A stretch of DNA of 3,083 nt from a plasmid. Where the stretch lies: NCBI RefSeq assembly GCF_054482595.1, contig NZ_JBTHVH010000002.1. The stretch is one strand, 5' to 3'. The notes beneath the pieces were generated by a model. That model searched no databases and had not been told where the DNA came from. It saw only the letters and a list, made by a program, of their open reading frames with translations. A program made the translations under genes and the position numbers. This document shows, piece by piece, positions 1 to 3,083 of the stretch (its first letter is position 1; every line of letters starts with the position of its first letter).

Positions 1-426
1 CTCTTCGCTCTCCGTCTGATTTCGTTTGCAATTCTGTTATTTACTCTAATGGTGATAACCTTAGTCCTCTGCCGTACTTCTGAACCACTACGCTTATTTT
101 TAGCCATCGCAATGACTCTCCATTTTGCACGTTCTGGGTGTCGGGGCCTGCCCTGACAGGAGGTATTCTCATGCAAGCGAATGTATTCGCGGTATGACGA
201 ATACACATCCTGTCCCGTTTTTCGCTACAACTTTTCGACAAAAATAAAATACCGCGTCGTAACCTGGTATTTCTGATACAAAAAAACGATGCTTCATTCA
301 ATATTATTTACACAGATTTTAAAAGTTATTTCTTGTTATTTAATAAATAACGCAAAATTAATTGATGCTTTTGTTCTTTGTCGTTTGTTGATTATTGAGT
401 AAATAAAGATTGTGTTTTCCTGATTA

Positions 427-438: not shown

Positions 439-1010
439 CCTGTTAGTGATACGGAGTGCATCAGAGAACAGGAAGCAGGAGATCAAGATAGTAGCATGTG
501 CATAAAATACAAACCCGTGAGTTATTGATATCGCGTTTATATATTAAAAATATAACTTAACATTGCTCTTAATATTTATTTTGCCCTCGCAATGGGTGCA
601 TTAATCCCCGTGCAGCGCTCCGCCAGCTGCTGACGGCCTCGACATGCAACCGTCAATGCGATAAAAGATCGGGGTGCGTTTCCGGCAACAACTAACCATA
701 GGGATGGTTTGCGTGCCGACAAACGCCGGAAACGCGCCTCAAATCCACCAAGCCGCCACGGTTCCGGCAGCGCCTTGAGCGCAACCGGAAACCGACTGGG
801 GAGAACCCCAGACCCCCACCGCTGCAACATCATCGGTCTGCGACCGCCTACCAACCGAGCGACTGCCTGTACCGTGCAAACGGGCTTTGCAGGGGCTGGC
901 GCGGTTCCTGGCGACCTGAAAGCCCCTGGTTAGGGGTATCGGCGCGCCTGGCCTCCTGAAACCCTCTGTAAGCGTTTTTCGCGCCTTCCATGCCCTGGGG
1001 GGCATTTAAA
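439..1010 (+). ncRNA. ColE1-family pre-primer RNA II (ends approximate)
   Basis: ORF-free GC-rich stretch of about 570 nt between the -10 at 427-432 and the G6 run (997-1002) plus A-rich transition (TTTAAAACCC, about 1005-1014). This is the pBR322 geometry (RNA II about 555 nt; G6 then GGAAAAACGCC at the RNA/DNA switch). The six-frame ORFs here are Arg/Pro-rich with no ribosome-binding site. Confidence 0.5.
441..549 (-). ncRNA. Predicted antisense RNA I (copy-number control); position inferred from the ColE1 paradigm only
   Basis: In ColE1 replicons RNA I is antisense to the first ~110 nt of RNA II. I could not identify its promoter or its three stem-loops with confidence, so the coordinates are placed by analogy, not by sequence match. 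Confidence 0.2.
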
Positions 1011-1015
1011 ACCCG
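997..1015 (+). other. ColE1-type origin core: G6 run and A-rich RNA-to-DNA transition
   Basis: CCCTGGGGGGCATTTAAAACCC resembles pBR322 TCAGGGGGGCGGAGCCTATGGAAAAACGCC, the G-run and A-run that flank the RNase H processing site. Comparison is from memory of pBR322. Confidence 0.45.
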
Positions 1016-1059
1016 TTTCGTGCGTCTGAGAGCTTCTGAGCGCGTTTGAAGGGCTATCT

Positions 1060-1215
1060 GGCGACTCATCCCTGAAAGAAAAACAACGGGATCACCGACA
1101 ACATGCGAGAGATGACACCGCTCGCCGCAGCCCTAGCGACCGAACGTAGTGAGCGAGTGGGCGAGGAAGCGGAAGAGAACTGGAAGGTACATTTGGCTCT
1201 TACGCACTTCCGTAA
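1060..1215 (+). other. Ori-distal conserved segment with primosome assembly site (n'-pas / ssi-like)
   Basis: TCATCCCTGA...GATGACACCGCTCGCCGCAGCC...GTGAGCGAG...GAGGAAGCGGAAGAG...CTCTTACGCAC parallels pBR322/pUC TTATCCCCTGA...GATACCGCTCGCCGCAGCC...GTGAGCGAGGAAGCGGAAGAG...CTCCTTACGCAT. The GAAGCGG heptamer (1166-1172) is, as I remember it, the conserved PriA/n' recognition motif. Confidence 0.6.
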
Positions 1216-1382: not shown

Positions 1383-1913
1383 ATGATAAACGGTCGATAC
1401 AAAACTAACCCTTTTTTGGAAGGTATGATAGTGCCCGTCAAGGGTAAACAAGTCAGACTTTCCCGTCTAGGTCGTGATGAAAACATACTGGTTAATCAGA
1501 ACACGGGAGAGGTTCAAGGCACCCATGTAACAACATATAAACGGGTTGATGGTGAGCAGTTTGTAAAACTATTCACTGCAAATATCGCGTTAACCTTTGA
1601 TTTGTCAGCTCAAGGAATAAAAGCATTTAACGTTTTGATGTGGGCAATACAAAAGCAGTCAGTATCAAAAGACGAAGTTTATTTAGATACTCACACAAGA
1701 GAGGAGTTTCTTGCTATTTATAATGATAAAGATAAACCAATTAAATTAAGTCAGCCAACATTTGCTAGAGGATTAGCTGAACTTACAAAAGCTCAAATTA
1801 TAGCTAAAACCATACGTCAAGGAGTGTATTGGATAAATCCAAATTTTGCATTCAACGGTGATAGAATCGCGTTTACAACTCTTATTGAAAGGCAAGGTAA
1901 TAGTGAAAAATAA
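1383..1913 (+). CDS. Small winged-helix DNA-binding protein, putative iteron-binding replication/maintenance protein (RepL-like; assignment tentative)
   Basis: Same frame as track ORF 1323-1913. ATG 1383 has AAGG 7 nt upstream; alternative starts are ATG 1425 and GTG 1431 (GGAAGG 7 nt upstream). Stop TAA at 1911-1913. The C-terminus has a helix-turn-helix plus beta-wing signature (QPTFARGLAELTKAQIIAKTIRQGVYWINPNFAFNGDR) and the N-half has a GEV...FVK pattern I recall from RepL. Direct repeats upstream fit an autoregulated iteron-binding protein. Confidence 0.65.
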   Translation: MINGRYKTNPFLEGMIVPVKGKQVRLSRLGRDENILVNQNTGEVQGTHVTTYKRVDGEQFVKLFTANIALTFDLSAQGIKAFNVLMWAIQKQSVSKDEVYLDTHTREEFLAIYNDKDKPIKLSQPTFARGLAELTKAQIIAKTIRQGVYWINPNFAFNGDRIAFTTLIERQGNSEK

Positions 1914-2761: not shown

Positions 2762-3083
2762 TTATCTGTCGAATAAGTTAGAGCCTGGGTATTTATTTTT
2801 GTGCTCTCTTTTTATTATTTTTATTTCCTCTATTATTAAATCCATCTCTTTATAAATATTTGAAATTTTCTGTGTTATCTCTTTCATTTCAGTACAGAGT
2901 GAAATTATTTTATGCATCACCTCTAGGTACTCTTTATCATTCGGACTCATCCCTTTATCAAATAATTTTTTCTGCATCCGACCAAGTTGTATTAATTCAT
3001 CTAGATATCTAGAAGGCACGCGCTGTTTTATTTCATTATTTAAACTTACTGTCCTTATATACTCTGAGATTGTCAGCCCTTCG
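2762..3083 (-). CDS. Hypothetical protein, 5'-partial (frame open to the window edge), AT-rich; function unknown
   Basis: Track ORF 2762-3019 begins at a GTG with no ribosome-binding site. The same frame has no stop for 21 more codons to position 3083 (…EGLTISEYIRTVSLNNEIKQR-VPSRYLDEL…), so the true start probably lies beyond the window. Stop TAA (plus-strand TTA 2762-2764). Convergent with the 1927-2715 gene. Confidence 0.5.
   Translation of the reverse strand, partial: EGLTISEYIRTVSLNNEIKQRVPSRYLDELIQLGRMQKKLFDKGMSPNDKEYLEVMHKIISLCTEMKEITQKISNIYKEMDLIIEEIKIIKREHKNKYPGSNLFDR

Follow-up and report, generated by a model that had tools for sequence, protein, structure and literature searches.

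A strand-specific hairpin unit shared by otherwise unrelated small plasmids and its possible role as a single-strand signal

Introduction

What does a long palindrome do in the noncoding DNA of a small plasmid? The window analyzed here is a stretch of 3,083 nucleotides (nt; contig NZ_JBTHVH010000002.1) that corresponds to the complete circular Escherichia coli plasmid pLH10-b-1-j (3083 bp; NZ_CP100540.1, 99.9% over the full length, rotated by 1325 bases), whose plasmid type is Col(MG828). Its noncoding GC-rich stretch (580-1280) holds an imperfect palindrome, called P1 below (671-740, in a unit spanning 626-759; positions and the + strand are those of the window). The original prediction had read this palindrome as a stem-loop within RNA II, the primer transcript of ColE1-type plasmids, or else as a protein-binding or cruciform site. 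We find that the unit is apparently a member of a plasmid-specific, strand-specific hairpin family that has so far gone undescribed, and we tentatively favor a role as a single-strand signal, akin to single-strand initiation sites (ssi) or single-strand origins (sso), on exposed + strand DNA.

Results

P1 folds into a long hairpin

The two strings on which the palindrome was recognized, GGTGCGTTTCCGGC (673-686) and GCCGGAAACGCGCC (725-738), pair at the places first reported with a single wobble (T675·G736), and they enclose the smaller hairpin that had also been noted (AACCAT, 694-699; ATGGTT, 704-709; loop AGGG, 700-703). A repeat search returned the same arms as a 14-nt pair with 93% complementarity, 38 nt apart, and the stem can be extended to 16 pairs (671-686/725-740) through G672·T739 and G671-C740. 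RNA folding of 439-1010, the proposed extent of RNA II, kept exactly this stem together with the second hairpin described below (757-795), as did folding of 665-800 alone. The latter 136-nt piece had a z-score of -3.9, and none of 200 shuffled sequences was equally stable. The palindrome alone is nonetheless weak evidence, because 7 of 100 dinucleotide shuffles of the window contained an equal inverted repeat (14 nt, at most 1 mismatch, 3- to 60-nt spacer). It is the conservation and covariation in relatives that make it more than a product of chance.

Compensatory changes identify a folding strand

Relatives were aligned as 18 distinct sequences, which represent about 8 alleles and one paralogous unit, "J". 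Throughout the alignment, the nested hairpin persists together with the GC-rich 13-bp core of the long stem, and a search for compensatory changes was positive, with both helices kept through double substitutions. Five pairs changed on both sides, including UA/CG at columns 60/110 and CG/UA at columns 63/107 and 76/87. These double changes convert CCGG/CCGG to CTGG/CCAG, GGC/GCC to GGT/ACC, and, in the inner stem, CC/GG to TC/GA; in allele L012, GCGCA/TGCGC replaces GCGCG/CGCGC. The nested hairpin has both-sided changes at columns 75/88 and 76/87 and G·U versus A-U at columns 74/89 and 78/85. In covariation score and in the count of doubly changed cells, the alignment surpassed all 500 shuffles and every slid control, and RNAalifold found both helices independently.

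One-sided changes were asymmetric between the strands. Among P1-type units, about 7 events produced G·T or T·G pairs on the + strand of the window and none produced A·C; when all units were counted, including poorly aligned ones, the numbers were about 10 G·T versus 3. Since P1-type units show G·T but never A·C on the + strand, that strand is the folding strand. It also folds more stably than its complement, in 8 of 11 alleles when RNA parameters are used and in 10 of them when DNA parameters are. These data support the view that constraint, or at least mutation, acts on the hairpin unit as a single + strand, and with alleles that are few and related they are supportive rather than formal proof.

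The nested hairpin (696-709) and its homologues also show RGGGAUG, with GGA at the loop edge, a motif that other units of the family do not have. This display is reminiscent of CsrA/RsmA binding hairpins.

The unit is confined to plasmids and shared by unrelated backbones

BLAST searches with positions 655-748 found the palindrome in 119 plasmid records at about 80% identity, and the version from the plague plasmid pPCP1 used as a query retrieved more divergent copies besides. Carriers include RepL plasmids of 2.3 to 3.1 kb, one 1597-bp pKL1-like plasmid, ColE1-type plasmids (pPCP1, the E. coli pesticin plasmid, and ColK-like 7.7-kb plasmids), and minimal plasmids of 2.3 to 2.7 kb whose only gene encodes a Rep_1 (pC194/pUB110-family) rolling-circle initiator. 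When 1.4-kb contexts were compared pairwise, the unit alone (about 90 to 135 bp) was the common block, and the backbones were otherwise unrelated. In 5426 complete E. coli genomes the unit occupied 71 plasmid places and no chromosomal ones, and a metagenome scan added about 35 further true copies with few new alleles. A contig scan with a 15- to 16-base pattern gave chance matches only. We found no match to the unit among phages or in Rfam, and literature searches on Col(MG828), pKL1, pBuzz, and pKYM turned up no account of it.

The unit is dispensable for replication, since pKL1-like plasmids of 1549 bp carry 12 bp in place of the 150-bp unit-bearing segment of their 1597-bp relative. No target-site duplications were found, and the flanks belong to the conserved unit. 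A miniature inverted-repeat transposable element or a repetitive extragenic palindromic-type dispersed repeat was therefore rejected, both for this reason and for the lack of chromosomal copies in the E. coli genomes.

A covariance model (R1) built from the alignment of units recognized one unit in the window and none in ColE1, pC194, the G4 origin, or the 1549-bp pKL1-like plasmid. In other carriers it revealed same-strand tandem arrays of two units (pPCP1), three units (ColK-like plasmids), or two to four units (Rep_1 plasmids), with decayed units among the copies. The arms (GCGCGTTTCYGG and CCRGAAACGCGC) and the 3' tail, with a family consensus of T(C/A)AAAAC, are nearly invariant across units, whereas the interiors are wholly different. 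One rolling-circle plasmid of 2.7 kb (L185; such labels denote individual relatives) has four units across 1481-2147, about one-quarter of its length, that converge on rep, and the last of them overlaps the rep stop codon. A four-unit tandem array is also present in L161 (4502-5164).

The folding strand has a fixed orientation to pas and oriT

Five of five backbones that bear a ColE1-type ssi, or primosome assembly site (pas), carry its GAGGAAGCGGAAG on the folding strand of the unit: the window, L006, L012, and the pPCP1 and ColK types. In both ColE1-type backbones, the folding strand is the RNA II-sense strand, which is the lagging-strand template. Plasmids with a single I-type origin of transfer (oriT), namely the window, L006, and L012, have the nick motif CACATCCTGTCCCG on the folding strand in all cases, and in plasmids with two inverted oriTs the folding strand is one of the two nick-motif strands. 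The nicked strand is taken to be the transferred strand (T-strand) by homology with IncP and IncI nic regions. P1 itself is not an oriT, and the I-complex nick motif CATCCTG of the window lies outside it, at 204-217.

Transfer origins occur in pairs in pKL1-like and related small plasmids. An I-complex (R64-type) oriT with its nick motif on the + strand lies in L008 (pG-EA11; 781-1035), L006 (1125-1381), and L012 (614-868), and about 135 bp beyond it stands a ColE1-type nic, GTATACTGGCTTA, on the opposite strand. These plasmids hold two different borrowed transfer origins, inversely oriented.

On the rep-sense strand of the Rep_1 plasmids, a conserved nick motif resembling that of a double-strand origin (dso), CCTTGTATTTATAC, precedes rep, an arrangement that matches pC194. 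Their displaced strand is therefore the complement of the folding strand, and an ordinary sso was rejected for these plasmids because its orientation relative to this motif is wrong. E. coli and Shigella Rep_1 plasmids (L184 2254-2280, minus strand; aligned with L185 to L187 and L005) share a conserved CCTTGTATTTATACT(A/T)(T/A)AGG about 250 nt upstream of rep; judged by its likeness to pC194 TCTTGATAATA, it is probably the dso nick region.

A tentative assignment as a single-strand signal

We propose, with the caution that the points below impose, that P1 is an ssi- or sso-like single-strand signal. Exposure of the + strand would come about in transfer from the I-complex oriT, or when this strand serves as a lagging-strand or displaced template. 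The exposed hairpin would then keep free of single-stranded DNA-binding protein, mark a priming site for complementary-strand synthesis, and act as an ssi/sso-type signal alongside the ColE1-type ssi/pas of the same plasmid. We infer both that DNA, and not RNA, forms the folded strand and that it acts in priming. There are precedents for such a signal. In pIGRK and pHW126, of the RepL superfamily, a palindromic ssi upstream of the iterons is dispensable, and its loss raises copy number and multimerization (PMC6854812, PMC2831885). In ICEBs1, one sso is reported to serve both replication and conjugative establishment (PMC4595007).

Several observations weigh against this proposal. P1 shows no sequence likeness to known ssi: the characterized classes (the phiX174-type AAGCGG hairpin, the G4-type, and ssoA with RS_B/CS-6) have no homology to it, and the failure of R1 to match the G4 origin, ColE1, or pC194 and the absence of a phage match belong here as well. 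Independent observations of orientation are few, about five. pPCP1-type plasmids have the unit without an I-type oriT. The Rep_1 rolling-circle plasmids fold on the nondisplaced strand, so that the conjugative T-strand argument alone holds there, and trivially, because both strands carry oriT. The excess of G·T could stem from C-to-T mutation bias on an often single-stranded strand instead of selection for pairing. A promoter-like box 5' of the stem is unaccounted for unless it is the relic of a decayed unit. Finally, a stem sequence that is nearly invariant across paralogous units suggests sequence-specific recognition, which is not required of a purely structural priming signal.

Alternative functions

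The promoter-like box raises a second reading, which we consider doubtful but not negligible: that the unit is a small structured-RNA gene. Transcription would begin at the foot of the hairpin from a weak sigma-70-like promoter (TCGACA-17-TAAAAG), and the product, headed by a very stable 5' stem-loop, might act in regulation, as a cis-antisense RNA or otherwise, or as a decoy that binds protein. The geometry of the box is constant, with TnGnCn exactly 17 nt before TAnAAn and the latter 5 to 8 nt before the stem in all 31 distinct units. The G·U asymmetry is as predicted for a + strand RNA, the interior varies while pairing is kept, as in antisense-RNA loops, and units in Rep_1 plasmids point toward rep and run into its 3' end. 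However, the near-universal final T of the -10 element (position 6) is missing from 30 of the 31 units, and a promoter scan called no promoter here. The box can also be read as a decayed unit. In the C allele, the box spacer is the right arm of the upstream hairpin, so that the box is at least partly a decayed neighboring unit; its probable source is the right arm and tail, now decayed, of a preceding unit. There is no downstream terminator in the window, no Rfam family, and no antisense target common to the RepL and ColE1-type backbones. In the supplement to a Yersinia pestis sRNA-seq study (PMC3770706), RNAI, sR084, and sR104 are listed on pPCP1 and none at 2418-2478, where a tight hairpin RNA may be under-sampled.

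Three more specific identities of this kind were tried and rejected. An intrinsic terminator was not found by a scan of 1-1500, and the tail of P1 reads CTCAAATCC. A single-stranded DNA promoter of the Frpo/M13 type, with a paired -35/-10 box, is not supported, because the box pairs with nonhomologous upstream sequence, in some alleles only and inconsistently. In single-strand folds of the window, the box (639-667) pairs imperfectly with 588-602 (CGCAATGGGTGCAT), a pairing that other alleles do not have. HmsA (sR084), a 65-nt small RNA (sRNA) of pPCP1, was suspected because its size matches, but its published primers map to another locus, L014:77, about 600 nt away. The HmsA gene of Y. pestis is itself conserved on the E. 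coli pesticin/Pla plasmid (L014 77-141), about 600 nt downstream of the units.

We judge two further readings unlikely. In the first, the unit would act as duplex DNA, and a protein of the host or of a helper plasmid would bind its conserved arms as a pair of sites or as a cruciform. The protein could be a relaxosome, partition-like, or recombination factor, or the unit could instead be a hot spot at which recombination reshuffles segments of plasmids. Paralogous units with entirely different interiors have almost the same 13-bp arm sequence, and single copies of the motif GAGCGCGTTTC occur elsewhere, one of them at position 1038 of the window. Further, homology between backbones often stops right at the unit edges, and units adjoin oriT in several backbones. 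Recognition of half-sites, however, predicts conservation of each arm and not the concerted, pairing-keeping double changes that were observed. Tolerance of G·T but not A·C on one strand is likewise unexpected for duplex recognition, and no candidate protein is common to all carriers. In the second reading, the units would be a hitherto undescribed kind of hitchhiker signal, sequence-specific hairpins (stem plus A-rich tail) recognized by a trans-acting enzyme on the incoming or exposed single strand, or they would constitute a new plasmid hairpin RNA family. The enzyme might be the RNA polymerase of the host, or a primase or relaxase-type protein from a helper plasmid. Whatever their mode of replication, small plasmids that carry only an oriT would collect arrays of the unit, securing second-strand synthesis or establishment.

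It is improbable that the unit is a selfish or decaying palindromic repeat, functionless for the plasmid and spread by recombination between coresident small plasmids. Its dispensability, with only 12 bp at its place in the 1549-bp pKL1-like plasmids, and the decayed copies within arrays would be expected of such a repeat. The compensatory changes would not, nor would the persistence of the unit at roughly 80% conservation in backbones with nothing else in common, the fixed orientation to pas and oriT, or the absence of chromosomal copies and target-site duplications. In addition, arrays make up about one-quarter of minimal plasmids of 2.3 to 2.7 kb, where useless DNA should be lost.

The assignment to RNA II with which this locus was first presented, a stem-loop of a ColE1-type primer transcript (439-1010) needed for primer folding, did not hold up, and we regard it as very improbable. 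The hairpin is indeed stable on the + strand and persists in the fold of that region, and the window does have a ColE1-derived segment downstream (1117-1206). That ssi segment, however, is the only part matched by BLAST against ColE1, and a cmscan of the window at E <= 1 returned neither RNAI (RF00106) nor any other Rfam family. The plasmid has RepL and iterons instead. Where the unit does occur in ColE1-type plasmids (pPCP1, the E. coli pesticin plasmid, and ColK-like plasmids), it lies 0.9 to 1.4 kb downstream of the origin, beyond rop and after the + strand terminator; the RNAI/RNAII coordinates published for pPCP1, in the supplement of PMC3770706, confirm the orientation. Relatives without the unit are also numerous, and pKL1-like plasmids share the adjacent GC-rich module without it.

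A cer-like XerCD multimer-resolution site with the nested hairpin as its core is hardly credible, even though we take the inner ACCATAGGGATGGTT to be loosely like the XerD arm TTATGGTAAAT plus the CloDF13 spacer GGGATG, because a pattern search allowing up to 5 mismatches found no 11-(6-8)-11 core in the window and the ColK-like and pesticin carriers have a canonical core elsewhere (L009:1958, GGTGCGTACAATAAGGGATTATGGTAAAT, and L010:45).

Gene map and neighboring features

The features of the window are collected in Table 1. The inverted repeat of the oriT, GTCGGGGC-ctg-CCCTGAC, is at 140-157, and its nick-region motif, given above, is at 204-217. The ORF that follows repL had no match in a Pfam search, and open reading frames on both strands of the GC-rich region were likewise without Pfam matches.

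Table 1. Positions of the hairpin unit and of other features in the window
Feature	Position	Strand	Remarks
I-complex (R64-type) oriT	130-217	+	Adjoins mobA; on the strand that folds into P1
Complete unit (5' box, long hairpin P1, 3' tail)	626-759	+	R1 score 116.7 bits, E 1e-24
5' box: TCGACA (639-644), 17 nt, TAAAAG (662-667)	639-667	+	Promoter-like, without the final T of the -10 element
Left arm of long stem	671-686	+	13-bp core 674-686 (GCGCGTTTCYGGC in the family); T675 and G672 in wobble pairs
Nested hairpin, CAACTAACCAT-AGGG-ATGGTTTG	692-711	+	GGGATG nearly invariant among P1-type units
Right arm of long stem	725-740	+	Core 725-737, GCCRGAAACGCGC; followed by tail CTCAAAT
GC-rich noncoding module	747-1208	+	88-93% identity in pKL1-like 1.5-kb plasmids and other RepL plasmids
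Second hairpin	757-795	+	Arms CGGTTCCGG and CCGGAAACCG around nested GCGC-CTTGA-GCGC
Homologue of ColE1 ssi/pas	1117-1206	+	76.7% to ColE1 1308-1396; GAGGAAGCGGAAGAG at 1163
Iterons/operators and repL	1279-1370 and 1383-1913	+	Plasmid's own replication module; Pfam RepL, E 2e-7
Hypothetical open reading frame (ORF), 270 amino acids	1903-2715	+	Overlaps end of repL
mobA, 142 amino acids, NikA-like	2762-3083 plus 1-107 (across the window ends)	-	

The original prediction had also seen the palindrome motif recur as GGTTCCGGCAG (760-770) and ACCGGAAACC (784-793). Both strings are present at those coordinates, but they are in fact the two arms of a second hairpin, in which a repeat search found an inverted repeat at 762-773/779-790. 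This hairpin lies outside the P1 unit and opens the GC-rich module that pKL1-like plasmids also have, and it resembles P1 only in the short strings TTCCGG/CCGGAAAC. It is highly conserved, with one compensatory change in its inner stem (GCGC/GCGC to GTGC/GCAC in L155b), and its outer stem is disrupted in some relatives. The ssi/pas homologue, on the strand that folds into P1, closes the module.

Hundreds of pKL1-like plasmids of 1.5 kb have the module. PlasmidFinder appears to assign the type Col(MG828) by this module and not by a rep gene, because the 1597-bp plasmid, which has no RepL, is given the identical type. The RepL of the window shares about 32% identity with Rep from 2.7-kb plasmids of Bacteroides and Parabacteroides, which are probably pBI143-like. 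This likeness ties the RepL plasmids of E. coli to a very widespread family of gut plasmids.

Discussion

Small cryptic and mobilizable plasmids are very common in E. coli, Klebsiella, and Yersinia, and their noncoding DNA is mostly unannotated. The unit described here defines a discrete cassette that unrelated replicons, including the plague plasmid pPCP1, exchange. Recognizing it corrects a tempting misannotation, in which the GC-rich region of Col(MG828)-type plasmids is read as ColE1 RNA II. Should P1 prove to be a signal for single-strand priming or for establishment, it would help to explain how plasmids that have only an oriT and borrow the relaxase of a helper complete their second strand after transfer.

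Comparison with known systems sets the unit apart from some and brings it closer to others. The XerCD sites cer, ckr, and psi are, like P1, accessory sites of small plasmids at mosaic junctions, but P1 lacks the XerCD core architecture, and plasmids with the unit have canonical sites apart from it. Inc RNA of I-complex plasmids, CopA, and ColE1 RNA I are similar in that each is a bulged hairpin of about 65 to 70 nt with a promoter-like box immediately upstream; antisense and control RNAs also have, as P1 has, a variable upper stem and loop over a conserved lower stem. Unlike them, P1 lacks a terminator U-tract, the -10 T, an Rfam match, and a common target, and its units span plasmids with three different replication control systems.

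The G4-type (primase-dependent) ssi and the complementary-strand origin of phage G4 consist, as P1 does, of stable hairpin structure on the template strand. Many alleles (B, C2, F, G, H, and J) have a CTG 11 to 13 nt 3' of the stem, which may be compared with the CTG start of G4, 3 nt after stem-loop I. The window allele differs from G4 in having no CTG within 55 nt of the stem and shows no sequence or model match to it, and the G4 origin has three different hairpins, unlike P1.

The parallels that bear on the proposed role are with ssi and sso elements. ColE1-type ssi/pas (n' or PriA sites) and the ssi of pIGRK and pHW126, the latter compared by description, are like P1 noncoding, hairpin-forming, strand-specific, and dispensable for replication, and they lie on the lagging-strand template, as the unit does in the ColE1-type backbones. 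P1 differs from the ColE1-type ssi in having no sequence similarity to it and no AAGCGG. It lies 380 to 450 bp further upstream than the pas of the window and is absent from many relatives, and its units are arrayed in tandem and keep the sequence of their stem, an arrangement not described for pas sites. Compared with the rolling-circle sso elements (ssoA, ssoU, ssoT, and ssoW) and sso1 of ICEBs1, P1 lacks the RS_B/CS-6 arrangement, and TAGCGT is present on the opposite strand, outside the hairpin. Nevertheless, these elements share with the P1 units their orientation specificity, their structured and noncoding nature, and their mobility between unrelated replicons.

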